Shown here: positions 4,494-59,637 of the stretch, one piece after another
How the letters are laid out: the number at the start of each line of letters is the position of its first letter
How positions within the stretch are numbered: the first letter of the stretch is position 1
Virus record (IMG/VR): IMGVR_UViG_3300031992_000005
Location: 160,001 to 224,000 of that record
Length of the DNA stretch: 64,000 nt
Strand: one strand, 5' to 3'
Source: a virus
The notes under the pieces: model-generated
What the model was told of the DNA's origin: nothing
The model's database searches: none
What the model saw: only the letters and a program-made list of their open reading frames with translations
Position numbers and translations under genes: made by a program

Positions 4494-6134
4494 ATGATTA
4501 TACAGAGTAAGTATACAAAGATATTCCATTCAAAGGATTTAACTCGTCAGAAGTATGATGAGTTAAATGACTTTGCTGTGCTTATTCAAAACCATAAAAA
4601 CACCGTGTCACAATACGTTAATGATAACATTCTTCATTTCTTGGAATACAATAAGTTCCAATTCCTTAAGGTAATGAGAGAACGTTTCAAAGAAGTTATC
4701 CCAAGTTCATTTGATGCACAACTTTATACACAAGTGTTCACTTGTTATCAGAATAAATTCGATGCAATACAACGTAAACTTGTCTTTGAAATCGTTACAT
4801 TTAAAGGATTTGAGTTTTATAAACGTGATACCAAGAAACATAAGGAAGGTGACTTGAAAAAAGTAGTTTTTGATAAGAAACAAACACCATTATCTAACTG
4901 TCTTACTTATCTTGCGAGATACAGTAATGAGAATACAATAGACTACATCAATGACAATATAAGCAAGTGTGACGAGAAGAAACGTGAGTTCTATAACAAC
5001 ATACTAAGATGTTGTGATAAATTCGGATTTGAACGTCTCTACAATCTTGCTTTGTCAAAAAGAAAACGTGTTGTCAAGCATTATTCTGAATATCCTATTG
5101 AGTTCAAGTCATTAACGTTCAGTGGTAGGTGTAGGAAGACAAGGATAATAGACTACAACAGTAGGTTTGGTTCAGTAATCAATTCATTCGTAAGTCTCAG
5201 TGGAATTGGTAGGAAATCATTTGATGTACCAGTTACCTTTAATAAAGGTTGGCATGGAAGTATGAAGGATTACAGAAAGAAAAATAACGATTATGAATAC
5301 ACGCTTACATTTAATGAAAAGAATCACCAAGTGAATATTCATCTGTGTAAAGATGGAGAAAGGTATATACCACAAGTACATGGTGAAACAATAGGCATTG
5401 ATGTTAATTGCAAACATAATTTGTTCAGTTTGTCAGATGAAACCACTTATGACTATGATAGAAAACTTGTTAATGACTTCTGTAAACTATCTCTTGAAAT
5501 AGATAAATTGAAAGAAAAAGATAAAAAATATAAGGTTGGTAAACGTAAACAGCAGAAACTTGATACTCTCAAATCCAAAATGATTAAGTCTGAGCAGCAA
5601 CTTATTGCTAATATGTGTAAGGTATTACATTCACAAGGTGTGGGGCATATTGTAATGGAAGACCTTGATAATGGATTTGGCAAATGCTATGTTAAAGATA
5701 AGGATAATGAGAATATAAATTACAACAGAAAGGTTAAATTCCTTGGCTTGAGTAGTCTTAAACAAGAAGTTGAGCGTATTGCAAAGAAATATGATATTGC
5801 GGTTTCAACAGTTCAAGCAAGTTATACATCGAAGATGTGTCCTATGTGTGGATGTATTGAGGACGAAAACAGACCAAACCAAGAAACATTTGAATGTGTT
5901 GAATGTGGACATAAAGATAATGCAGACTTTAATGCTGCAAAGAACATAAGGAACAGAGTGCTTGTAATCGTGTTACGAGATTTGCTCTTAAAACAAAAGG
6001 ATAATGGTGCTTTTGAGCCTAAGAAACTTAAACGTGAGAAGGTAAAGGAGGTATTGTTATCGTTTCGAAGAAGCCTACAAAATGTAGGAAGTGAATGTAC
6101 AGAAAGTAGTGTGACTACTTTTGACTATGTTTAA
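4494..6134 (+). CDS. tnpB: TnpB-like (IS200/IS605 OrfB / Cas12-ancestor) RNA-guided endonuclease, no tnpA nearby
   Basis: RuvC-I is IGIDVN, RuvC-II is HIVMEDL, the Zn ribbon is CPMCG...CVECGH and RuvC-III is NADFNAAKNI. All catalytic positions are present. Confidence 0.85.
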   Translation: MIIQSKYTKIFHSKDLTRQKYDELNDFAVLIQNHKNTVSQYVNDNILHFLEYNKFQFLKVMRERFKEVIPSSFDAQLYTQVFTCYQNKFDAIQRKLVFEIVTFKGFEFYKRDTKKHKEGDLKKVVFDKKQTPLSNCLTYLARYSNENTIDYINDNISKCDEKKREFYNNILRCCDKFGFERLYNLALSKRKRVVKHYSEYPIEFKSLTFSGRCRKTRIIDYNSRFGSVINSFVSLSGIGRKSFDVPVTFNKGWHGSMKDYRKKNNDYEYTLTFNEKNHQVNIHLCKDGERYIPQVHGETIGIDVNCKHNLFSLSDETTYDYDRKLVNDFCKLSLEIDKLKEKDKKYKVGKRKQQKLDTLKSKMIKSEQQLIANMCKVLHSQGVGHIVMEDLDNGFGKCYVKDKDNENINYNRKVKFLGLSSLKQEVERIAKKYDIAVSTVQASYTSKMCPMCGCIEDENRPNQETFECVECGHKDNADFNAAKNIRNRVLVIVLRDLLLKQKDNGAFEPKKLKREKVKEVLLSFRRSLQNVGSECTESSVTTFDYV

Positions 6135-12783: not shown

Positions 12784-13149
12784 ATGAATAAAAATAATGA
12801 TAGTTATTATTACAAAATAGTTTTGGCGTATGAAATACCATACAACGTCTTAGATAGTAACGATCCTGATAAGATCTTAGCTAGGGAGAATCTATATCAA
12901 GCGATAACTAAGATTATTCCCACTAGTAAGTATGATAAATTTTCAGTTAAACTTATGCTTTTTCAATTAAAGGATACGTTTAACTACGTGGTGATGTTTG
13001 ACTCTTTCTTTAGGTCTACAGAAGGTTTACCTATGAGTGAGTACACTGAGGCTAGTAAGATTAAACAGGCAGCTAAGGATGAACTAGAGAAATACTTTAA
13101 TTCACTCGACTGCGATTATAAACCACTGAATATAATTACATTATTATAA
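12784..13149 (+). CDS. hypothetical protein (between RNAP subunit genes)
   Basis: From the ORF track. Its stop overlaps the beta start (ATAATG). Confidence 0.55.
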   Translation: MNKNNDSYYYKIVLAYEIPYNVLDSNDPDKILARENLYQAITKIIPTSKYDKFSVKLMLFQLKDTFNYVVMFDSFFRSTEGLPMSEYTEASKIKQAAKDELEKYFNSLDCDYKPLNIITLL

Positions 13150-16100
13150 TGAGTAATTTTAATCAATTTTTCAAAAATCAAGGGGCAAAGACGATGGTAG
13201 AGCGTTTCTTTACCGGAATAGATGAATATACGCCAAATAAGAAACTAACAAACCTAACTTGGCATCTAGCCGAAGAAGATAAACGCCCAGCTTCATATTT
13301 CATAGAAAATGGATTAACTGCAACTCATAAGGTAATCCTGGAGTATACAATTAACTATGATGATGAAATTCGTACATCTGAGTTTGAAGTCCCTAGAGAA
13401 ATAGACGGTGTATTTATTATAGAAGGAGCTTATCGTATTGCTACTAATAACCTAGGAAAAGACTATGATTGTAGAATCAATATGTCAGGTACTGGTAGAC
13501 AATACATTAACTTTGACTATGGTAGAGAATATGACATCAAGACTGGTATTCTTAAAATAAAGAGGGTAAATCCTGACTTAGGTTTACCTGAAAAAGTAAG
13601 AGAATATAAGTTAGATGAAATAGATGAACTCAGTGGTATTGAAAAAGAAGTTCTAAAACTTTCTGAAAGACAGAGAAAGAAGTTTCAGGTAAAGCTTGAT
13701 ATTGATTATTCCCCGGATTATATTTCAAAGAAGCTTATCGAGGATTGTATTGCTTATGGCGATGATAGAATTCGAGATCTTATTATTGATAAGAAGATTG
13801 ATTCTGTTCCCGTTGGTTTTATGAAGTATATCTTCAATGGAGGTAATAATAAGAACTTCTATGGTACAAAATCCCAACTAAGAAACTATTGGAGTAAGCA
13901 AGGTAAGTTACAGGACCAGATTAATGTACTTACAAATCTTTGTGCTAGATACTGGAAAGGTAGTAGTTCAAAGAAGAAAGGAGAGGATAATGATGTTCAA
14001 GTTTCTCCTGGTGTAAATGCCATGAACCTGGAAAGTATCACGAATAAAATCTATATTCCTGAAACTGTAGCTTATAATACTACCTTTAGTGACTTGATTT
14101 GTGTTGGTGCTACACCAAATAATGGTAACATCGGTAAGCAGAATGCCTTGACTGTATCTACCCATATTACAGATGAGGATGTTCTCTTTGACTGTTATAC
14201 TACCAAGTTTCAAAAGATCACTATCCCATACTTGGATTATCTTAATCATAAGGTATGTGCTAGTGAGTACGTTGACTATGATACTAATACCGTTAAACCC
14301 GATAAGGATGGTAAGGTAGAAGTTAAGCATAGAATGCGTAGAAAGATGGTACCAGTGGAGGAAATTGAGTTAATTGACCTTCACCCAGACTATCGTTTAT
14401 CAGAAGAAGTAAGACGTATACCGTTTGTGAATTTTACTGACTCTGTTCGTATCTGTATGGGTAGTGGTATGTTAAAGCAAGCTATTCCACTTGTTAATGC
14501 AGAAAGACCTCTAGTAGATACAGGTAACTATGAAGAGCTTCATACAAACGTCTTGAATGAACGTTTTAAAGAAGAGTCTGGTGTAGTTAAGGATGTAAAT
14601 GAAGAGGGAGTATTAATAGAACTTCCTAATAAGGATGAAATTCTTATTCCAAGAAAAACTGCTATTCAGAGTATAAATGATGTTGACGTCTTTACTGAGC
14701 CTAAAGTTAAGAAAGGCCAAAAGGTAAAGAAGGGTGATGTTATTACTGGAGCAGTTGGCTTGGAAGAAGATACCTATAAAATGGGTATTAATGCTCTCGT
14801 CTTATTCCATGCAATGTTTGGTGATGTCAATGAAGATGCCTTAGTAGTTAGTGAGTCTTTCTCAAAGAAAATGCACTCTTACTCTGTTATCGACCTGATA
14901 TATGAAGTAAGAACTAATGAGGCAATCAAATGGATAGCTCCAATAGGTCAACAGGTAAAGTCTAAAGATCCCGTCATGATGACCTATAAGGCTGTTAAAC
15001 TTGACTTAGTCAATAAGGCCTTGAATGATAAATTAGGTGGTATCTTTGGAGATCAAAAACTAGATCTCTCTGAATATACTATTGAAAGTAACTTGGAAGT
15101 TCCTAATGACATTGATGAAGCTTATGTTAGTGATGTTAGAATTCAGGAAAATTTACACCCTAGAGTTCCTGGTGGTACTAAGAGACCTGACTTAACTTAT
15201 GCTCATACATCAGAGGAGACTATCAAAGATTATAATTTTGATAGAAAAATTATCTATGATAGATATCCAGAATATATTGCAGCAGATAGACTTAAGGATA
15301 TATCATTAGCAGATAAGGATTATAAGATTGTTTATGTAGTTCGTATTAGACTTATTAAGAGAACAAATCTTATGATCGGATCTAAGGTTACCAACCGTTA
15401 TGGTGGTAAGGGTGTCATTTCTAAGATCTTGCCAGATGATAAGATGCCAATCATGGTAGAATCTGCAACTGGTAATAAGAAAGTTGTGGATATTGTCATG
15501 AACCCTTATAGTACAATTAACCGAAAGATTCCTTCTGTTAATATGGAGAGTCTCTTAGGTTCAATTGCGCATAGAATTCATGACATAGTAGATGAGAGGA
15601 AAAATGATAAGAAAAAACAGGAAACTATCATGCCTCTTGTTCAGAAGTATTATCCTGGTCGATTTGATGGAATGACATTAGAGAAGTTCTTGAAGTTACA
15701 TGAAAATAGTAAACTTGAGGACGTATATTACTTCAATGTAGGTAGTTACTCTAGACTTACTCCAAAGCAGATAGATGAATGGGCAAAGGAATTAGGTGTT
15801 ACACCTCAATCAAAGATTCTCATGCCTAGTGATACTATCGCTGACCTTGATGAGCTTAAAGCGAACTTAAGTGAGGAAGAATATAATACCGCCGTTAAGA
15901 ACTTGACAGGTAGATACGTAGAAGTTGAAAAGCCACTTAGTGTTGGTTATATGACTATGGAAGAACTATATCAAATTCCAACTTATAGTGATAAGGTAAC
16001 TTCTAGTATGTTCGGTGTTGATGTTAATGAGTGGGTAGATTCTCCTATTATGGGTAGAGGTGGTTATAGAAAAACTGGTCAGATTATCGGTGAAATGGAG

Positions 16101-16310
16101 CTCATGGCATACTTGTCAAGAAATGCCAGAGATTTCATTAAGCTCTCTAGAGGAGATACCTCAAGAGAAGATAATCAGCTCTTCTTGAATAACCTCTTAG
16201 GTCTTGGTCTAACTGTTACAGACAGTAAGGGTTATAATCAGGGCGGTTCATCTCTCAAGAGTAGACTTGGTGAGATGAAGACTAAATTCAGACTAAAGAA
16301 TCAGAAATAA
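13149..16310 (+). CDS. multisubunit RNA polymerase beta-like subunit
   Basis: TNRYGGKGVISKILP (cf. SRHGNKGVISKI), VDIVMNPYSTINRKIPS (cf. LNPLGVPSRMN) and GQIIGEMELMAYLS (cf. GEMEVWALEAYG). Uninterrupted, 1053 aa. Confidence 0.85.
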   Translation: MSNFNQFFKNQGAKTMVERFFTGIDEYTPNKKLTNLTWHLAEEDKRPASYFIENGLTATHKVILEYTINYDDEIRTSEFEVPREIDGVFIIEGAYRIATNNLGKDYDCRINMSGTGRQYINFDYGREYDIKTGILKIKRVNPDLGLPEKVREYKLDEIDELSGIEKEVLKLSERQRKKFQVKLDIDYSPDYISKKLIEDCIAYGDDRIRDLIIDKKIDSVPVGFMKYIFNGGNNKNFYGTKSQLRNYWSKQGKLQDQINVLTNLCARYWKGSSSKKKGEDNDVQVSPGVNAMNLESITNKIYIPETVAYNTTFSDLICVGATPNNGNIGKQNALTVSTHITDEDVLFDCYTTKFQKITIPYLDYLNHKVCASEYVDYDTNTVKPDKDGKVEVKHRMRRKMVPVEEIELIDLHPDYRLSEEVRRIPFVNFTDSVRICMGSGMLKQAIPLVNAERPLVDTGNYEELHTNVLNERFKEESGVVKDVNEEGVLIELPNKDEILIPRKTAIQSINDVDVFTEPKVKKGQKVKKGDVITGAVGLEEDTYKMGINALVLFHAMFGDVNEDALVVSESFSKKMHSYSVIDLIYEVRTNEAIKWIAPIGQQVKSKDPVMMTYKAVKLDLVNKALNDKLGGIFGDQKLDLSEYTIESNLEVPNDIDEAYVSDVRIQENLHPRVPGGTKRPDLTYAHTSEETIKDYNFDRKIIYDRYPEYIAADRLKDISLADKDYKIVYVVRIRLIKRTNLMIGSKVTNRYGGKGVISKILPDDKMPIMVESATGNKKVVDIVMNPYSTINRKIPSVNMESLLGSIAHRIHDIVDERKNDKKKQETIMPLVQKYYPGRFDGMTLEKFLKLHENSKLEDVYYFNVGSYSRLTPKQIDEWAKELGVTPQSKILMPSDTIADLDELKANLSEEEYNTAVKNLTGRYVEVEKPLSVGYMTMEELYQIPTYSDKVTSSMFGVDVNEWVDSPIMGRGGYRKTGQIIGEMELMAYLSRNARDFIKLSRGDTSREDNQLFLNNLLGLGLTVTDSKGYNQGGSSLKSRLGEMKTKFRLKNQK

Positions 16311-23038: not shown

Positions 23039-25028
23039 ACAATATATGTTTGTATTTGATTCGGATGAAGAAAGAATAGCTCACGAAGAGGGAGACACTT
23101 ATACGGAACCATATGTCTCCCTTATTCGGGGAACGGATCAAGTACGTTATAATAGTGAAGGGGTAGAAGTGACTTACTTAATTCCCCAAAATATATGGAA
23201 TGGTCCAGGAATTTATCCTTTCTGGGCTGGAACTACAACGACAGACTACCCTTTTAATAGAATACTGGTTGATGGAAAAGACTCCTATGATATAGAAGAT
23301 CTTAATCCAAAGACCGGGGTTTTTTTTAATACCCCCGGAGTACATACAGTTAGATTTTTCTTAACTGATAAGACATTCTTTGGAAATACTGATAATAAGC
23401 CATTTTTTGAAAATATTCCATTAATGGTTTTAGGGATAAAATTTCCGAATACATTAACTGAAATTGGGGATAATTTATTAGCTGGTAGTGGTCAATACAT
23501 AGAACACCTAGTAATACCAGAAGGAGTTACTACGATAGGAAATCATGCATTTCCCGTTTGTGTAAAATTAAAGTCCCTTAGCCTTCCAAGTACATTAGTA
23601 AGTATTGGTACTGCAGCATTTCTTGCTATGGGATATGAAAATGAATCACCACTAAATATAGTATTACCTAACTCTGTTACTACTATAGGTACCGATTGTT
23701 TTCAGGATGCTAAGATAGGTTCAATTATATTGAGTTCTTCCTTAGAGAGAATTCCAGAGAGAGCATTTATGAATTGTACTTATTTAACAAGAATTGTTAT
23801 CCCTTCTAGTGTAGTTGATATTTTTGATCGTGCTTTTTATGGAGATACTTTACTGAGTACAGTTGAATTGTTTGAGGGAGAATTAGATTATATTGGAGTA
23901 AAGTCTTTTTTCGGGTGTCCAATTAATCGTCTTGTCATACCAGAGGGAGTAATTAGTTTGGGTTCAAATTTCATAACAAGCCATGAGTTAGAAACTTTAG
24001 TAATACCTGACTCTGTTACTGAAATAGATGGAAATTATTCATCACCCCTCTTTAGAGAAGAGGATGAAATTATTGTTCATAATCTAAAAATTGGCTCTGG
24101 ATTTCCATTTACTCACGGGTATACTTTAGGAATTCATCAAGTGGGAACTGTCGAATATAGTGGAAATACTATACCAGACCATTTTATTAGTAATAATTTC
24201 GGTAGTGTTGATGAAATTAAGTTAACAGGTTCTCCAACTACAATTGGAGAGAGTGCTTTTAGAGGATTTTATGGTGAGTACTTAGATTTACCACAGAGTA
24301 TAACTACGCTTGGGAGAGGTGCTTTTAGAGATTGTCCTGATTTGAAGAAGCTTATCATACCCCCATTAGTTACAGAATTACCTCCTGCTTTGTGTATGGG
24401 AAACAATTCCCTTAAAGAAGTTATTTTACCGAGGAACCTAGTATCTATGGGTGATAGTGCATTCTCTGATTGTATTTTTACTGAAATTACCCTACCTAGT
24501 ACGTTAACTTCTATAGGAGTCGAGGCTTTCCCTTATACTTTAAAAACAATAAATATACCAGCTAATATAAATCTACAGTATGTAGGAACTGGATCTTTGA
24601 CTGAAATTAAGTGGTATTCAACTTTAGTCGGTGAAGTATATATAGGAAAAGTATTAATTAAGCCAGTATTAGATTTGCAAGGTAGATATGTAGTCAAAGA
24701 GGGGACGACAAAAATATGTGATAAGACTTTTCAAAACTCAACATCATTGGTACGTGTAACTTTGCCAAGTACCCTAGTAGAGATAGGTGAGCATGCATTT
24801 GCTGGTTGTAGAAATTTATCTATTATAGTAAGCAATGCAGTGGAAGCACCTTTAGCTGAATATAGGGCATTTGGAGATAGCAGAGAAGGATATGCAGGTG
24901 CAGCTGGTAGTGTAAATCCAGGTACTAATAAATTATATGTTCCAATAGATGCAACTGGTTATGATCAAGATGAATGGTCAGTATTAATAAATGAATCTAA
25001 AGGAGGATTTCAAATTATAAATGGCTAA
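23019..25028 (+). CDS. BspA-type leucine-rich-repeat protein, putative tail fibre/receptor-binding protein
   Basis: Many repeats of the form IPEGVTTIGNHAF..C..L.S..LP.S (LRR_5-like). The true start is probably ATG 23028. Confidence 0.75.
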   Translation: MKDMNDEQYMFVFDSDEERIAHEEGDTYTEPYVSLIRGTDQVRYNSEGVEVTYLIPQNIWNGPGIYPFWAGTTTTDYPFNRILVDGKDSYDIEDLNPKTGVFFNTPGVHTVRFFLTDKTFFGNTDNKPFFENIPLMVLGIKFPNTLTEIGDNLLAGSGQYIEHLVIPEGVTTIGNHAFPVCVKLKSLSLPSTLVSIGTAAFLAMGYENESPLNIVLPNSVTTIGTDCFQDAKIGSIILSSSLERIPERAFMNCTYLTRIVIPSSVVDIFDRAFYGDTLLSTVELFEGELDYIGVKSFFGCPINRLVIPEGVISLGSNFITSHELETLVIPDSVTEIDGNYSSPLFREEDEIIVHNLKIGSGFPFTHGYTLGIHQVGTVEYSGNTIPDHFISNNFGSVDEIKLTGSPTTIGESAFRGFYGEYLDLPQSITTLGRGAFRDCPDLKKLIIPPLVTELPPALCMGNNSLKEVILPRNLVSMGDSAFSDCIFTEITLPSTLTSIGVEAFPYTLKTINIPANINLQYVGTGSLTEIKWYSTLVGEVYIGKVLIKPVLDLQGRYVVKEGTTKICDKTFQNSTSLVRVTLPSTLVEIGEHAFAGCRNLSIIVSNAVEAPLAEYRAFGDSREGYAGAAGSVNPGTNKLYVPIDATGYDQDEWSVLINESKGGFQIING

Positions 25029-28000
25029 TAAAAAATATATGCATAGGTTCAGTACTACAGTGGATAGACTGAACTATGAAGATAATCCTACTATCTACAC
25101 CGAGCCTTATCTTAGTGTAGTAGAGGAAAACAAACTAACAGTATATTATAATAAGTCAAGTGCAGAAACTGGATATCTGAAATTTACTCAACTTGGAGAA
25201 GATGGTGGTACAATTGGTATTATTGAAAATAATAATAATATCAACTTAGAATATTCTTTCGATGGGAAAATCTGGATTCCCTTTCCAGTATCTGGGTTAT
25301 TTTTGAATAGTGGTGAAAGTGCTCTCTTAAAGGGAAATAATACTACAATATATCCAGCTAGATTTACAATGACTGGATTAGTGAGAGCCTCTGGTAGTAT
25401 AATGTCTATTCTCTACGGCGAATCTTTCAAAGATAGTACTACTATTCCATCAGAGAATTGTTTTCAAGGATTATTTTCAAACTGTACTTCACTTACTTTT
25501 GCCCCTGAACTTCCCGCTACAACTTTAACGGAAGGTTGTTATGCAGCTATGTTTCAGGGCACTAGTATAACTAATTTCCCAACTTTACCTGCTTCATATG
25601 TACCTAACGGATCTTATGCTAGAATGTTTTTTGACTGTACGAATCTTAGGGGTACTGGTTATATATCAGCTCTAACTAGTGAGGAAAATTCGTTCTTTAG
25701 GATGTTTTCGAGAGCAGGTTTACAAGGGGAATTAACTATAGTTAGACCACCTAATGCTACTTGGCCAGTTGAAGAGTTTATAGGAGAGGGCGTTAATGTA
25801 ACATCAGTTCCAGACGAAAATGATAAGATCCAGGTAAGAAGATTGTATAAGACCGAAACAAAGTATTCTACTGATAATGGTAGTGTAGGAAATTTATACT
25901 ATGACGATGAAGAGTGGTATGAGTATGTAGGAAGACATGTAATCGATGGACATAGCTATTATTTGTGGGAAAAGAATGATAATAGGAGTAGTGGAAGTGA
26001 GCGGAATTCTGTTATGAAGCGTTATGCAATAACAGAAAATAGATACCCTACGTGTGATCTTGAATATCCATATACACCTCTAGGTTTCTTAACAAGCGAT
26101 TTTGATGCTAGTTATTCGGGTCCTGATATTAGTGACACTTTTTTTGTTTACTACGATTCACAAAACGATAGGTTGTATAAAGAGGCACTTAGTTACTTAG
26201 GACCAGACCTAGTAGATTGGTATGAATATTCGAACCCAATTATTATTGATGGGTATACATATCATGCGTGGAAAAAGAAAACTTCTTCTAGGGTCGAGGG
26301 AGAACACCTTATTAACACTGCAGGTACTACACGACCTTCTCATTTCTACCTTTTACTTGATACATTAAACCCTGTATGTAGTGGTAGTAATCCAATTACT
26401 GCATTAGGGTATTTGAGACCTGATCAGTCTATGTATTTTATGAATTCTGGGTCTGATTATATCATCAAGTATGATAGTCGGACGCTAGGTTGGAAAAGAT
26501 GGTGTAGGGCAGAGAACAACGAAACAGGCGCATATGCAGAATTTTTTACAATAGATGGATATAGCATTGAGTATGAGACTTTACGTAGTGTTTTCTTGGA
26601 TCAATTAGACGGTATCGCTGGGATAAAGCTAATTATTGGGTATGAAGGTTTATTAGATATTAATCTTGAGTTATTAGGGCTTTCTAGTCTAGTAAAAGAT
26701 TTAGTCCTAGTTGGTTCTCTAAAAAGTTGTAAAATACCTGGCATTAATTCACTACAGACATTAAATCTAGAAAATTCATCTATAACCGATCTTAATATTT
26801 CAAGTGGAAGTACTAATCTAAGAAGTATTGTTTTTCCACCTAACTTAGAGTTTATTGGAAGTATTAAGGAAACTGCGATGAGTGAGCTTGTAATACCTCC
26901 TACTGTAAAATATATAAGTTCTCATGCCTTTACGGGAAGCACACGTTTAAATAATGTGGTTTTATCAAGTGGATTGTCTGGTATTGGATCTGAAGCATTT
27001 GAAGGGTGTACTTCATTGGAAGAAATTGTTATTCCGAGAAGTGTTATTTATTTAGGGACAAACTTATTTTCTGATAGTGGGTTAAAAACTGTAGTTGTTA
27101 ATGCAAGTATTAAGTCTCTTCTTAAAGTCTTTAATGATTGCCCTAATTTATCCCAAGTAACTCTACCAGAGTGTTTGGAAAACATAGGTAACTATTGTTT
27201 TAGTTACTGTACTCAACTGACGAGTATTAATCTACCTAATGGATTAAATAGTCTAGATGACCATGCATTTTCGGCTTCAGGAATTACATCTATACAAATA
27301 CCCCCTCAGGTTAATGTTATAGGTAGTAGTGTTTTCTATGATTGCTCTGAACTTACCGATGTAGAGATACAGACTACCAATAATACTGTCGAGGTCCAAA
27401 AGAATGCTTTTTATAACTGTACTAAATTGACGCATATTAATTTAGAAAAATTAACAACTATAGACGAATATGCATTCTGTAATTGTAATAGTTTAACTTC
27501 TGTTAATTTAGAGAAAATTTCTACAATTAAGGCCAATGCTTTTGCGAGGTGTACTTCTTTAACCGATGTTAGCATTTCATCTCCAGTAACTAGAGTAATC
27601 TCCAGTAATACTATCTTTCCTAACTGTGATAATATAAAAACAGTTTATATCAATTGTACAAACTTTAGTACTTCAATTTTTTCCACAACTTCATTGAATA
27701 GTGTGGAGGAAGTTATACTTGGAACTAAGTGTTCATCTATTCCTGGAAAATTTACTAACTTCGCTAATCTTAGGTCTGTCATAATACAAGGAAATCTAAT
27801 AAGGTCTTTAGGTTTAAATTTATTTAAGGGTTGTACTAATCTGACCTCGCTTGAGATACCATCTTCTGTTACGAGTATTGGGTCTAATGCTTTTAAGGAA
27901 AGCGGTTTAGAAGAAATAACTATTCCAGATTCAGTAAAAACTATATCTTCTCATGCTTTCGACGGATGTACTAGTTTGGCGAGAGTTAGTGTTGGATCTG

Positions 28001-28620
28001 GCTTAACAAATGTTGGTGATAGTTCATTTGGTAACTGCTCTTCTCTAGAGTATTTATATGTTAATAATTCTAATATCGCCTTATATGATCTCGGATTGGA
28101 TGGGACAACAAATATTAAAGAAATTGTATTAGGTGACTTAGTTAATAGGGAATTTCTTGACTCTGGTCGTCTTGAATTACGAGAATATGAGCCTAATATA
28201 GAAACCTTTACTTTTGGTGCGGGCTTTGATAGACTTTGCAAAAAATTTTTCAAGAAGTGTACTAAATTGAAGTCTGTTACTCTTGGTAAAAACATGACTT
28301 CTATAGAAGAAAACGCCTTTCTTGGGTGTACTATGTTACCATCCATTGTTATTCCTGCGTCTGTAACTAGTATTGGTGAGTATGCTTTCTCAGATTGTAT
28401 TAGACTAAAGGATATCACTTCAAAAAATCCAACTCCACCAACAGTAGCGGATAATACTTTTGGAACTGGTCAGCCAGATAATGGATTTACTGGTCGAAAT
28501 ACATATAACCAGAATGTTAATAAACTTCATGTGCCTAAGGGAGCAACTGCCTATAATACTGCTTGGAGTAGGTTGTTGGTTTATTATTGGTCAGGATTTA
28601 CAGTAGAATACAATGGATAA
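25021..28620 (+). CDS. large BspA-type leucine-rich-repeat protein, putative tail fibre/receptor-binding protein
   Basis: 1199 aa. It has an N-terminal module shared with 23019 and 45748, an internal duplication (...WYEY...IDG.SY..W.K...) and a long LRR_5-like array. Confidence 0.75.
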   Translation: MANKKYMHRFSTTVDRLNYEDNPTIYTEPYLSVVEENKLTVYYNKSSAETGYLKFTQLGEDGGTIGIIENNNNINLEYSFDGKIWIPFPVSGLFLNSGESALLKGNNTTIYPARFTMTGLVRASGSIMSILYGESFKDSTTIPSENCFQGLFSNCTSLTFAPELPATTLTEGCYAAMFQGTSITNFPTLPASYVPNGSYARMFFDCTNLRGTGYISALTSEENSFFRMFSRAGLQGELTIVRPPNATWPVEEFIGEGVNVTSVPDENDKIQVRRLYKTETKYSTDNGSVGNLYYDDEEWYEYVGRHVIDGHSYYLWEKNDNRSSGSERNSVMKRYAITENRYPTCDLEYPYTPLGFLTSDFDASYSGPDISDTFFVYYDSQNDRLYKEALSYLGPDLVDWYEYSNPIIIDGYTYHAWKKKTSSRVEGEHLINTAGTTRPSHFYLLLDTLNPVCSGSNPITALGYLRPDQSMYFMNSGSDYIIKYDSRTLGWKRWCRAENNETGAYAEFFTIDGYSIEYETLRSVFLDQLDGIAGIKLIIGYEGLLDINLELLGLSSLVKDLVLVGSLKSCKIPGINSLQTLNLENSSITDLNISSGSTNLRSIVFPPNLEFIGSIKETAMSELVIPPTVKYISSHAFTGSTRLNNVVLSSGLSGIGSEAFEGCTSLEEIVIPRSVIYLGTNLFSDSGLKTVVVNASIKSLLKVFNDCPNLSQVTLPECLENIGNYCFSYCTQLTSINLPNGLNSLDDHAFSASGITSIQIPPQVNVIGSSVFYDCSELTDVEIQTTNNTVEVQKNAFYNCTKLTHINLEKLTTIDEYAFCNCNSLTSVNLEKISTIKANAFARCTSLTDVSISSPVTRVISSNTIFPNCDNIKTVYINCTNFSTSIFSTTSLNSVEEVILGTKCSSIPGKFTNFANLRSVIIQGNLIRSLGLNLFKGCTNLTSLEIPSSVTSIGSNAFKESGLEEITIPDSVKTISSHAFDGCTSLARVSVGSGLTNVGDSSFGNCSSLEYLYVNNSNIALYDLGLDGTTNIKEIVLGDLVNREFLDSGRLELREYEPNIETFTFGAGFDRLCKKFFKKCTKLKSVTLGKNMTSIEENAFLGCTMLPSIVIPASVTSIGEYAFSDCIRLKDITSKNPTPPTVADNTFGTGQPDNGFTGRNTYNQNVNKLHVPKGATAYNTAWSRLLVYYWSGFTVEYNG

Positions 28621-51994: not shown

Positions 51995-52030
51995 ATATCT
52001 CATATATAAGGTTTTGAAGGGAAAGAAAAA

Positions 52031-52592: not shown

Positions 52593-52640
52593 TACTCTAT
52601 ATATAAGGCATTAGTTAACATTTGGGGAAGAAAAAAAAAA

Positions 52641-52761
52641 TAATTCGAGAGGGAATCGAACCCCCGACCTCCCCGATATATTAGCTTTATATACCTGGTG
52701 TTCTACCTCAGAAAACCTAAACATAAGATCTAATCGTAGATTTTCTCTGAACTATCGAATT
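52641..52761 (-). tRNA. aberrant 121-nt tRNA-like gene (canonical acceptor and T-arm, expanded D-loop and anticodon arm, anticodon undetermined)
   Basis: AATTCGA-TA-GTTC-[45-nt loop with hairpin AGAAAATCTA...TAGGTTTTCT]-GAAC-A-[28-nt arm CCAGGTATAT/AAAGCTA/ATATATCGGG]-AGGTC-GGGGG/TTCGATT/CCCTC-TCGAATT-A. It has the same promoter/terminator cassette as tRNA-Lys. Confidence 0.45.
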
Positions 52762-52806
52762 ATTCTTATATATAAGGCTTTGAAGGGTTATATGGAAGAA
52801 AAAAAA

Positions 52807-53285: not shown

Positions 53286-53366
53286 ATTATACTCTATTTA
53301 TAAGATTTTAAGGGGATTTGAGATGAAAAAAAAAAAGAAGTGGCCATTACCACCCCTTTACTATGT

Positions 53367-56861: not shown

Positions 56862-56938
56862 AGAATTAAAAAAATTAAATATTATTTACAATACAAAAGT
56901 AAGGCATTGAGGGGAGAAAAAAAATACCCCTTCAGAAA

Positions 56939-57369
56939 GGGGATAATGCCTTATATATGTAATTTATATTATCTTTCATACATGTTTACTAAAGGGGATC
57001 GTCCGTGATGGATATATCCCCTCATTTTTTTGTTCAAAAAAAATAGGATCGAGATATACATATTACTATGTATAACCCTGACTGACTATTCTTTTTGAGA
57101 TTTATTATACTCTATATATATCTATTTATAAGGCATTAAGGGGAGAAAAAATACCGCCCCAGAAAGAGAAAAATGCCTTATATATAGAAACAGACGCATA
57201 ATAATTTAATTTCATAATAATAACTAGGGGATCGGTTCGTGATGAATAGATCCTTTTTTTTTCATATCCCTTTAATGCTTTATATATGATCATAAAAAAT
57301 ATTTTTTTAAGTTTGAAAATAATGATTGGAGGATCAGTCCGGGATGGATAGATCCTCTTTTTTTTTTTG
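56939..57369. repeat. four ORF-less mini-cassettes (three on +, one on -)
   Basis: + promoters are at 56939, 57170 and 57267, with family hairpins at 56993-57022, 57226-57255 and 57328-57357 plus T-runs. The - promoter is at 57110-57145, with a hairpin plus U-run at 57036-57075. Confidence 0.55.
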
Positions 57370-57403
57370 TTCAAAAAAAATCCCCCGACACGGGGATTCC
57401 TTT

Positions 57404-57655
57404 TTATACACTTACGTTGAAGCCTAGGATATATTTATAAAATAAATCAGAGATCCTTTCATATATGCTTGGCTTTCCTGTGTAAAATTTTAATACTGAT
57501 CTTCCACTCTTAGTTAGTTTCCATGTTTCACCACTTGGAGAAACTGAAACGCTAATGTAGCCAAGCCTTAGTAATTCATCTACGTCTACTAAGCTTTCAA
57601 TGTCCTTCAATAGGCCTTTAGTTGAACTTAAAGCGTCTTTTAAATTTTTATTCAT
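57404..57655 (-). CDS. hypothetical protein
   Basis: From the ORF track. Its terminator is aatccccgtgtcgggggatt plus a U-run, with the promoter-like cccctcttaatacctt upstream. Confidence 0.55.
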   Translation of the reverse strand: MNKNLKDALSSTKGLLKDIESLVDVDELLRLGYISVSVSPSGETWKLTKSGRSVLKFYTGKPSIYERISDLFYKYILGFNVSV

Positions 57656-57702
57656 AATTGTTAGGTGTTGTGTTTATATACTCTTAAGGTATTAAGAGGG
57701 AA

Positions 57703-57848
57703 GAAAAAAAAAGAGAGGGGAACCCGTTTTAGAGAGTTGACTGATCGTCTGTGCGTCTGTGGGTTCCCCGGAGTGCAGCTGAGCCCGTCCTTTCGATCAT
57801 CGGCGGGGTCCGATCTGCTGCAATTTTCTAAAATCTAATTCCTTTATG
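57703..57848 (-). ncRNA. candidate G+C-rich structured ncRNA of unknown class with own promoter and terminator
   Basis: The - strand promoter CCCCTTAAATCCTTATATATG is at 57851-57871. Stems are TGCAGC/GCTGCA, ATCGG/CCGAT and GGGGAACCC/GGGTTCCCC plus a U-run. It is strikingly GC-rich in an AT-rich context and has no ORF. Confidence 0.5.
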
Positions 57849-57850
57849 TT

Positions 57851-57871
57851 CATATATAAGGATTTAAGGGG
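57851..57871 (-). promoter_or_regulatory. phage promoter-like consensus (- strand)
   Basis: Reverse complement is CCCCTTAAATCCTTATATATG. Confidence 0.5.
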
Positions 57872-57885
57872 ATTTCAGATTCTTC

Positions 57886-58497
57886 AAAAAAAAGAGAGGA
57901 TCTATCCGTCTCGGACCAATCCTCTAAAAATTATTTAACCTAAATATGATTGTTATGAATGTTTTACATATATAAGAGTTTAAGGGGATAAAAAAAAGAG
58001 GATGACCTATCACAGGCGACCCTCTTCTTCAATAACAAAAATTTAAATCTTTAAATCTATGGATATAATATACAACATATATAAGGGTTTAAAGGGATAA
58101 AAAAAAGAGGAGATCTATCCATCTCGGACTGATCTCCACCTGACATCTGAATATACATCATACTAAAATGAGAGTATTACACGTTAATAAGGAATTAAGG
58201 GGATAAAAAAAAAGAGAATCTATCCATCTCGGACTGATCCTCTAATAAGAAACATTCTATTAATTCTTAAACTTTTACATATATAAGAATTTAAGGGGAT
58301 GAAAAAAAAAAAGAGAATCTATCCATCACGAACTGATCCTCTTCAGAGTAAAATAAACATTACACGTACATATATAAGGCATTTAAGGGGTATAAAAAAA
58401 ATGACCGACTCATCACGAGCCAGCCATTGAATAATTTTTGAACTTTTTTTACCCAAGAAAAATAAGTACTTTCATTTATAAGAATTTAAAGGGATTT
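57886..58497 (-). repeat. tandem array of six ORF-less mini-cassettes directly downstream of polA
   Basis: Period is about 100 bp. Promoter motifs are at about 57967, 58073, 58175, 58272, 58363 and 58470. Family hairpins are at 57894-57925, 57998-58027, 58107-58137, 58214-58243, 58313-58344 and 58402-58426, each with a U-run. Confidence 0.6.
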
Positions 58498-58545
58498 GAG
58501 AAAATAGACCAGCCCCACATTAAAGGCTGGCCCACAGAATTAATA

Positions 58546-58935: not shown

Positions 58936-59237
58936 CGTTCTCTTCACATAAATTCGCTACATTTATGCCGGGCAATGCCACAGCTAATCATCTCTGATTA
59001 GACGAGACTATATCTTCAGTAAATAATTACTGCCTACTTTTTCGAACACCCATCGCTTGTGCTCTACTCTACTCACTTCTTCAGGTTTCCCCTATGCTTT
59101 CGATAGTCGTTGAATAAGTTTATAACTTACTGCTGATTGACTCTATTCATTGGATTTTTACTTCTATTCGATAGTACCAATGACCTAACAAGTTGTTCCA
59201 GCAATTAAGTAGGTTTATAGTGCACCATAAACTAACA
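58936..59237 (-). mobile_element. group I intron, ORF-less (polA intron 5)
   Basis: P1 is GUGCAU/GUGCAC with U.G at 59238. It has the Q element AATCAGCAG, CGACTATCG ... AAGATATAGTCTCG and terminal G at 58936. It is homologous to the ends of intron 60663..62159. Confidence 0.7.
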
Positions 59238-59637
59238 ATGCACTGTAATAATAGGTTGTAATGGTTGCTTCCAACCATCTTTAATTGATGACCTAATATT
59301 ATTAAAGAATCCACTAGCCATAATTGTACTAGTTCCTCCTTGAATAGGTAAATTTACACCTAATCTTTTGATTCTGGCAATTATATTTTGCGCTTCTTTT
59401 TGATCTTTTGCTTTTGGCAAATATTCATAATACTCCCTTAACCTTAATTTGTCTCCTAACATGGTATTAATGTAACCATCATGATCTAATGGATACTGAC
59501 CCTGAGACTCCACATATTCCCTGAGCTTTGGAAAAGACTTATATAAACTCTGGATAATATTCTCAGCTTCTTCAACAGAACTATCTAGTCGAGCTGCTAA
59601 GGAATTTTTCCCTAAGCCGTACAATACACCCAAGAAT
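59238..59637 (-). CDS. polA: family-A DNA polymerase exon (fingers/motif B)
   Basis: Reads (I)FLGVLYGLGKNSLAARL... and NLPIQGGTSTIMASGF (cf. N.PIQGSAAD), ending ...IITVH. Confidence 0.8.

Follow-up and report, generated by a model that had tools for sequence, protein, structure and literature searches.

A G+C-rich candidate small RNA gene in a promoter-terminator array downstream of the DNA polymerase gene of an uncultured jumbo phage

The locus and its phage

The candidate lies on the minus strand of an AT-rich stretch of 64 kb of viral DNA (34.8% G+C), referred to here as the window, in which a group I intron (58984-59262) splits a family-A DNA polymerase gene. Downstream of the polymerase gene seven promoter-terminator units are arranged in tandem, and the candidate is the last of these in the direction of transcription, not the first unit of the array as stated in the original prediction. 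The features of the unit and of its immediate surroundings are listed below.

57851..57870, minus strand: promoter motif CCCTTAAATCCTTATATATG, with 0 mismatches to the consensus CCYTTAAAYYCTTATATATG
57823..57850, minus strand: AU-rich leader of 28 nt, unpaired in centroid folds, sequence not conserved
57774..57822, minus strand: hairpin 1, with outer stem UGCAGC/GCUGCA, inner pairing GA.CCCGCC / GG.CGGG.UC and an apical loop
57791..57801, minus strand: apical loop GAUGAUCGAAA of 11 nt, identical in 4/4 lineages
57770..57773, minus strand: linker CUCC between the hairpins, invariant
57717..57769, minus strand: terminator hairpin, with the 9-bp stem GGGGAACCC/GGGUUCCCC and a 35-nt loop that contains a small inner stem GAC/GUC
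57746..57761, minus strand: tandem duplication of CACAGACG where the terminator loop begins, in the window lineage only
57704..57712, minus strand: U9 tract at which the RNA is expected to end; relatives have six to nine U
57672..57699, minus strand: promoter-like element CCTCTTAATACCTTAAGAGTATATAAAC with altered initiator half, from a relaxed motif scan, between the U-tract and ORF83
57404..57655, minus strand: 83-aa ORF (ORF83), directly downstream of the RNA and present wherever the RNA is
57665..57838, plus strand: 57-aa GTG ORF, shifted or truncated in relatives

The window harbors a divergent RNA polymerase beta-like gene at 13149-16310, whose closest phage matches are the beta subunits of PBS1/AR9 and of a jumbo Staphylococcus phage (about 25% identity), and a protein identical to that of ORF83 is also encoded on a contig of 353,905 bases. 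Together, the polymerase gene and the length of this contig point to an uncultured jumbo phage with a multisubunit RNA polymerase of its own. The phage derives from gut or rumen metagenomes, and the phage collection contains no record resembling the local DNA. A 1199-aa protein encoded at 25021-28620 (plus strand) carries BspA-type leucine-rich repeats (LRR_5, E 1.5e-101), as would fit a phage of the gut or rumen. A Shine-Dalgarno-like sequence precedes only 5/36 start codons; we take this scarcity to point to a host that is probably of the Bacteroidota type. ARAGORN finds six tRNA genes in the window. In addition to the intron of the polymerase gene, a second group I intron-like element is located at 2355-2695 on the plus strand (Rfam RF00028, 35.2 bits, E 3e-7, with a gathering score of 50). 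A 546-aa ORF at 4494-6134 (plus strand) matches the phage 'transposase' families phrog_506 (E 4e-25) and phrog_12300 (E 2e-21) and may be a mobile-element gene within the jumbo phage.

The motif CCYTTAAAYYCTTATATATG occurs in the window in 15 copies at ≤3 mismatches, compared with 0.2 expected. It is separated from the tRNA-Lys and tRNA-Arg genes downstream by 6-9 nt (51996-52020 and 53286-53314, minus strand), so that each phage tRNA appears to have a promoter of its own and a very short 5' leader. The motif is found again in a relative with only 56% identity in polymerase exon 2, and the copy ahead of the candidate RNA is identical or nearly so across all relatives. Copy number, placement before tRNA genes and recurrence in the relative make the motif a credible phage promoter which also drives stable RNA genes. 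The promoters of the non-virion polymerase of phiKZ contain TATG with the G as position +1 (PMC5312081), and by analogy transcription of the candidate likely starts at the terminal G of the motif (57851) or at the next base. Another promoter copy is followed directly on its 3' side by a tRNA-like gene of about 123 nt (52640-52762, minus strand) with acceptor strands AATTCGA/TCGAATT, D-arm TAGTTCAGAG, T-arm GGGGGTTCGATTCCCTC and an insertion of about 50 nt in place of the anticodon arm. This gene is called by neither ARAGORN nor Rfam and may represent an intron-containing or disrupted tRNA.

Extent and fold of the unit

The candidate unit extends from 57851 to 57704 on the minus strand. A promoter and a terminator of its own had been proposed, and sequence signals for both are indeed found, with a perfect motif at 57870..57851 and, at the other end, a hairpin with a 9-bp G+C stem and U9. 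The RNA is predicted to be about 147 nt long in the window and 126-137 nt in relatives. The G+C content likewise stands out from its surroundings as described: the best 80-nt stretch within 57705-57845 reaches 0.64, which is the maximum of the 64 kb (mean 0.35, 99.9th percentile 0.56) and also lies above all six tRNA genes.

Copies of the unit in relatives were found via the contigs of ORF83 homologues, which are 87–100% identical and fall into four clusters at 90% identity. The RNA accordingly exists in four lineages. That of the window is identical in L004, L005 and L006, a second one (L003, L007, L008) is 93% and a third one (L001) 87% identical to it, and L026 is the most divergent.

The terminator hairpin corresponds in all parts to what had been predicted, with the stem GGGGAACCC/GGGTTCCCC (57769-57761 / 57725-57717), the 35-nt loop and T9 at 57712-57704. 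Its stem contains 7 G-C pairs among the 9 bp and is followed by UCUC and U9, as in an intrinsic terminator. The hairpin has a z-score of -4.27, and 0/200 shuffled sequences fold as well. Owing to loop lengths of 22–35 nt it is missed by a simple terminator scanner that allows loops of 3-8 nt. The stem is conserved in all lineages and invariant, with 8 bp in L026, and the loop comprises 35 nt in the window, 27 nt in L003 and L001 and an unrelated 22 nt in L026.

The nested stems assigned to the preceding hairpin hold in part. The outer stem TGCAGC/GCTGCA is present (57822-57817 / 57779-57774) and persists in all lineages, among which a single C-G to U-G change is seen. The proposed inner stem ATCGG-ACCCCG-CCGAT is specific to the window; it is reduced to 4 bp in L003 and L001 and is gone in L026, and its place is taken by a pairing of CCCGCC with GG(A)CGGG. 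Hairpin 1 alone has a z-score of -1.18 and is not beyond shuffles, which means that its pairing may follow from the C-rich/G-rich composition alone. When each lineage is folded separately, the same succession of unpaired leader, hairpin 1, 4-nt linker and terminator hairpin is obtained, with z-scores for the whole RNA of -1.7, -2.35, -2.97 and -3.89.

Hairpin 1 of L026 has a rewritten 5' strand, with which the 3'-strand changes A63G, U69A and A71G restore a 15-bp helix. Paired with its own 3' strand, the L026 5' strand yields -21.6 kcal/mol, compared with -12.6 kcal/mol when it is combined with the 3' strand of the window. Shuffled versions of the variable 5' segment do as well as the native one in 272/2000 and 839/2000 cases. 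In an alignment fitted to the model, which comprises 26 pairs, 98% of the cells are paired, versus 29-48% if the partners are slid against each other. Compensatory changes are limited to one A-U to U-A swap in the inner stem and one G-U among four distinct sequences, for which shuffles reach the covariation score in 129/500 and the paired fraction in 31/500 cases. Comparison with relatives for covariation, as proposed initially, consequently gives a mixed outcome: the fold is retained in four lineages, but there is a single compensatory pair and the shuffles are not significant. The fold is compatible with the data and retained, not proven by covariation.

Several further structural interpretations were considered and discarded. 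A kissing contact of 6 bp between the hairpin-1 loop (UGAUCG) and the inner loop of the terminator (CGAUCA) is mismatched in L003 and L001 and absent from L026. Neither an HDV-like threading nor a K-loop reading of the loop nor a Shine-Dalgarno mimic, all inspected by hand, fits or is conserved. Contig ends as indicators of transcript ends were also dismissed, as they coincide with repeated cassettes and hence are assembly breaks.

Conservation and distribution

The conservation within the RNA is mosaic. In hairpin 1 the apical loop GAUGAUCGAAA and the 3' strand are conserved, as are the linker and the stem of the terminator, and in the 45-nt block from the loop to the 5' arm of the terminator 42/45 positions are identical between the window and L026. 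Leader, 5' strand of hairpin 1 and terminator loop differ by about 50% between the same two sequences. Overall, the RNA of the window is 74% identical to that of L026, compared with 77-88% for the neighbouring cassettes; third-codon identity of flanking genes is about 85–90% when the window is compared with L001 or L026. All four lineages contain the G+C-rich unit, and neighbouring cassettes are gained and lost.

The segment was described as free of ORFs, and this description stands: no minus-strand ORF of ≥30 aa is present, and short frames are broken by indels in relatives. The lineages are separated by indels of 1 nt and 2 nt in the leader and 5' strand, by a 1-nt deletion in hairpin 1 and by the 8-nt duplication, since CACAGACG is a single copy in L003, L007, L008 and L001; in L026 the terminator loop is wholly replaced. 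The frame comparison, worked out by hand on the lineage alignments, reveals no reading frame preserved among relatives. The 1-, 2- and 8-nt indels together with the loop replacement shift every frame, and the segment is therefore non-coding.

With three lineages as input, a covariance model (R1) picks up the divergent copy of L026 at 64.8 bits. The same model finds no paralogue in the window and no copy in the loci of more distant relatives or beside bacterial ORF83 homologues. Phages with 50-68% identity in polymerase exon 2 share the promoter motif, and no such RNA is found beside their polymerase gene. BLAST of the RNA against phage and plasmid collections gives chance matches of 20-40 nt only. 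The exact 20-mer CCCCGCCGATGATCGAAAGG has no match in IMG/VR and five in JGI metagenomes, all of them on G+C-rich contigs with unrelated flanks, some apparently coding. Exact scans of IMG/VR with GATGATCGAAAGGNCGGGC and GCTGCACTCCGGGGAACC return one chance match each. GATGATCGAAAGGNCGGGC matches 88 times in GTDB genomes, nearly all with 60-70% G+C, and none of the 88 matches is flanked by GCTGCA or GGGGAACC; a host-derived origin or a wide family is thus not supported. Complementary targets were searched in the window and the fetched loci, which yields matches of ≤12 nt and one AT-rich match of 14 nt to the L026 leader, all at chance level. As far as seen, the RNA is single-copy and clade-specific in these sequences, and from its absence in distant relatives and public collections it follows that a function, if there is one, is dispensable for the wider phage group.

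Possible roles of the RNA

The segment is a real, well-delimited non-coding unit. Most likely it is the gene of a small RNA that forms a new orphan family of its own; as an element it is of a kind already known, and it is restricted to one narrow phage lineage. An ncRNA with a transcription unit of its own, as originally predicted, agrees with the layout, the retention in four lineages, the lack of a preserved frame and the kept fold; the inner stem, however, is not conserved, and hairpin 1 does not surpass shuffled C-rich/G-rich strands. We tentatively prefer a stand-alone small non-coding RNA gene whose conserved loop acts as a contact surface. From the layout we infer that transcription would start at the repeated phage promoter motif shared with the tRNA genes and would end about 147 nt further on, at the G+C-rich hairpin and U9. 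The resulting RNA would consist of a variable, unstructured AU-rich leader, a G+C-rich hairpin presenting the invariant loop GAUGAUCGAAA, and a long, irregular terminator hairpin with an inner loop that can vary freely. The invariant loop and the conserved 3' half of hairpin 1 would form the functional surface, with the loop binding a protein or making a loop-loop contact with another RNA, and the G+C-rich stems would mainly serve to hold the loop out and to shield the RNA from nucleases.

The main alternative is that the segment constitutes the 5' leader or attenuator of ORF83, where most transcripts would stop at the hairpin and U9 and the small RNA would be a by-product. We regard this as rather unlikely, although it is the strongest competitor. 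A factor bound to the hairpin-1 loop, possibly the ORF83 protein itself, would allow read-through; alternatively, hairpin 1 would act on the polymerase in the manner of a put-type antiterminator RNA. The put-type RNAs of HK022 consist of two G+C-rich hairpins directly after a phage promoter and before a terminator and gene, an arrangement which the candidate shares. No sequence relation exists between them, and in contrast to HK022 the polymerase acting on the candidate is probably phage-encoded.

RNA and ORF83 occur together in every lineage that has either, and both are limited to the same narrow clade; the ATG of ORF83 follows U9 after only 48 nt. The promoter-like element CCTCTTAATACCTTAAGAGTATATAAAC in this interval is conserved in its upstream half in all lineages, while in every lineage AGAGTATA..., with indels that differ from lineage to lineage, stands in place of its canonical TATATATG half, so that ORF83 may depend on the promoter farther upstream. 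The block of highest conservation, which extends from the loop to the 5' arm of the terminator, is located where a switching region would be expected, and eight of the 11 small RNAs of phage 201phi2-1 arise from premature termination in 5' UTRs (PMC11512511). Against an attenuator speaks the lack of any conserved antiterminator pairing, as CCCCG of hairpin 1 can pair with CGGGG of the terminator 5' arm in the window but this pairing is lost in L026. Neither a riboswitch nor an aptamer nor a leader family is matched, and distant ORF83 homologues on other contigs do not have such an RNA upstream. Furthermore, RNA and ORF83 are separated by the terminator and by the promoter-like element, and the good conservation of the latter suggests that it is functional.

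A second alternative, which we judge unlikely, holds that the unit, as a strong composite terminator of the fail-safe type, as an insulator or as a relic left by DNA shuffling, closes the cassette array and that its RNA has no function of its own. Its G+C richness would then serve termination, and its conservation would reflect recent common ancestry. The array as a whole is made up of ORF-free units with bodies of 45-90 nt and contains nine copies of a terminator-tail/promoter repeat. Between the window, L003, L001 and L026, which are about 90% identical, whole units are present or absent, and the composite repeats coincide with the indel boundaries between these close relatives, as in a PeSL-like cassette array. 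The hyperplastic mini-cassette region spans 56900-58510 on both strands, with the terminator hairpin GGATCAGTCCGAGATGGATAGATCC in at least six copies across the strands. Since close relatives differ in the number of tandem units and the candidate is the last of the seven, it could stem from shuffling of the kind mediated by PeSLs (PMC4122927). The weak structure statistics of hairpin 1, a conservation of the whole unit that does not exceed that of its neighbours, and its absence from more distant relatives are in line with this explanation. However, the other six cassettes have ordinary short terminator hairpins and no G+C-rich insert. In addition, the 11-nt loop and the 45-nt block are nearly invariant in an RNA whose flanking parts are about 50% diverged, and the unit is retained in every lineage while its neighbours are lost. 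The three 3'-strand changes by which L026 regains pairing with its rewritten 5' strand are also unexpected for a relic.

Considerably less probable is a two-part module in which GAUGAUCGAAA would be the binding site of a winged-helix-like ORF83 protein, possibly with a role in anti-defence. ORF83 gives weak winged-helix hints; its AlphaFold model, at a pLDDT of 51.5, is too poor for a fold search. A relative of the protein is found in IMG/VR neither by sequence nor by family profile. It belongs to a wider, remote family of 85-92 aa with the motif LERLGYIENAxSPKGETWKLSKKGK. On the non-phage contigs L117-L121, where the downstream gene is complete, the small gene is followed directly by a 336-aa ORF of no assigned family, and this module adjoins a Lit-like peptidase gene (PADLOC Lit, E 6.6e-7) or, on L122, the gene of a TIR protein. 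By its gene context, the combination of small gene and 336-aa ORF resembles a defence-island module. Of this pair the phage has the small gene but not the 336-aa partner, and its 83-aa protein may be a mimic of a defence-system component; the RNA would then be a new cofactor or regulator carried along with this mimic. It is adjacency to ORF83 alone that links the RNA to the defence-like module.

Membership in a known RNA class (hammerhead, HDV-like, twister type, C/D-box or K-loop RNA, or CRISPR-repeat mimic) is very improbable. In the search of the whole window against Rfam 15, the check proposed for the segment, no match to it is obtained at gathering thresholds, and together with ARAGORN this corroborates the reported lack of similarity to tRNA, tmRNA, SRP and 6S RNA. 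Searches at E≤10 with slices of 801 nt and 171 nt and with the L026 copy give chance-level matches only, and no family reaches E≤0.1 on the segment. The best of them, to the archaeal C/D-box RNA sR58, falls on the apical loop in each case, at 11.5 bits in the window and 15.1 bits in L026, far below the gathering score of 55. The CGAUGA...GAAA string of the loop is, as suspected from the beginning, an incomplete hammerhead core (CCGAUGA-UC-GAAA): a G replaces the conserved U, stem II cannot form from the mere 2 nt between GAUGA and GAAA, and the Rfam hammerhead models do not match at E≤10. The HDV-like order of P1-P4 fails on hand threading, and CRISPR-array-like repeats are not found. A small protein is hardly credible: a 23-codon frame from the loop AUG (MIERTGSAALRGT...) and an 18-codon frame from the ATG of the promoter motif are both open in the window, but indels and loop replacement give the relatives other frames with unrelated C-termini, the promoter-ATG frame stops after 4 codons in L026, and substitutions are not biased to synonymous sites.

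Returning to the small RNA gene as the preferred reading, the closest parallels are found in phages with a multisubunit RNA polymerase of their own. Mapping in the jumbo phage 201phi2-1 revealed 11 small RNAs, each defined by a start site and a termination site a short way behind it (PMC11512511). Like the candidate, the small RNAs of 201phi2-1 and phiKZ are shorter than 250 nt and consist of a phage promoter and a nearby intrinsic terminator, either in intergenic position or just upstream of a gene (PMC11512511). They share no sequence or structural similarity with the candidate and were mapped experimentally, whereas the candidate is predicted from sequence. The candidate is, moreover, far more G+C-rich than its own genome, and its host is presumably of the Bacteroidota type.

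In the PeSL cassettes of T4-type phages, terminator-plus-promoter repeats flank short variable segments as in the array described here (PMC2839356, PMC4122927). These repeats mark the indel breakpoints between close relatives, and the present array gains and loses units in the same way. PeSLs flank small ORFs, in contrast to the ORF-free units found here, and phage group and promoter type differ. The candidate is the content of one cassette unit, unlike a PeSL, which is the cassette itself.

The tRNA cassettes of the same genome resemble the candidate in that the same promoter motif precedes a G+C-rich stable RNA by a few nucleotides in an AT-rich genome. In contrast to them, the candidate has no cloverleaf, matches no tRNA model and possesses a terminator of its own, and its G+C-rich body begins 29 nt past the putative start site.

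The practical value of the RNA is limited, as it is confined to a very narrow lineage of an uncultured phage and is a prediction. The mapping of small RNAs in jumbo phages that encode RNA polymerases of their own has only recently begun, and none of these RNAs has been explained functionally. As a self-contained unit with an invariant 11-nt loop on a freely evolving scaffold, the candidate offers a concrete, mutable target for functional tests.
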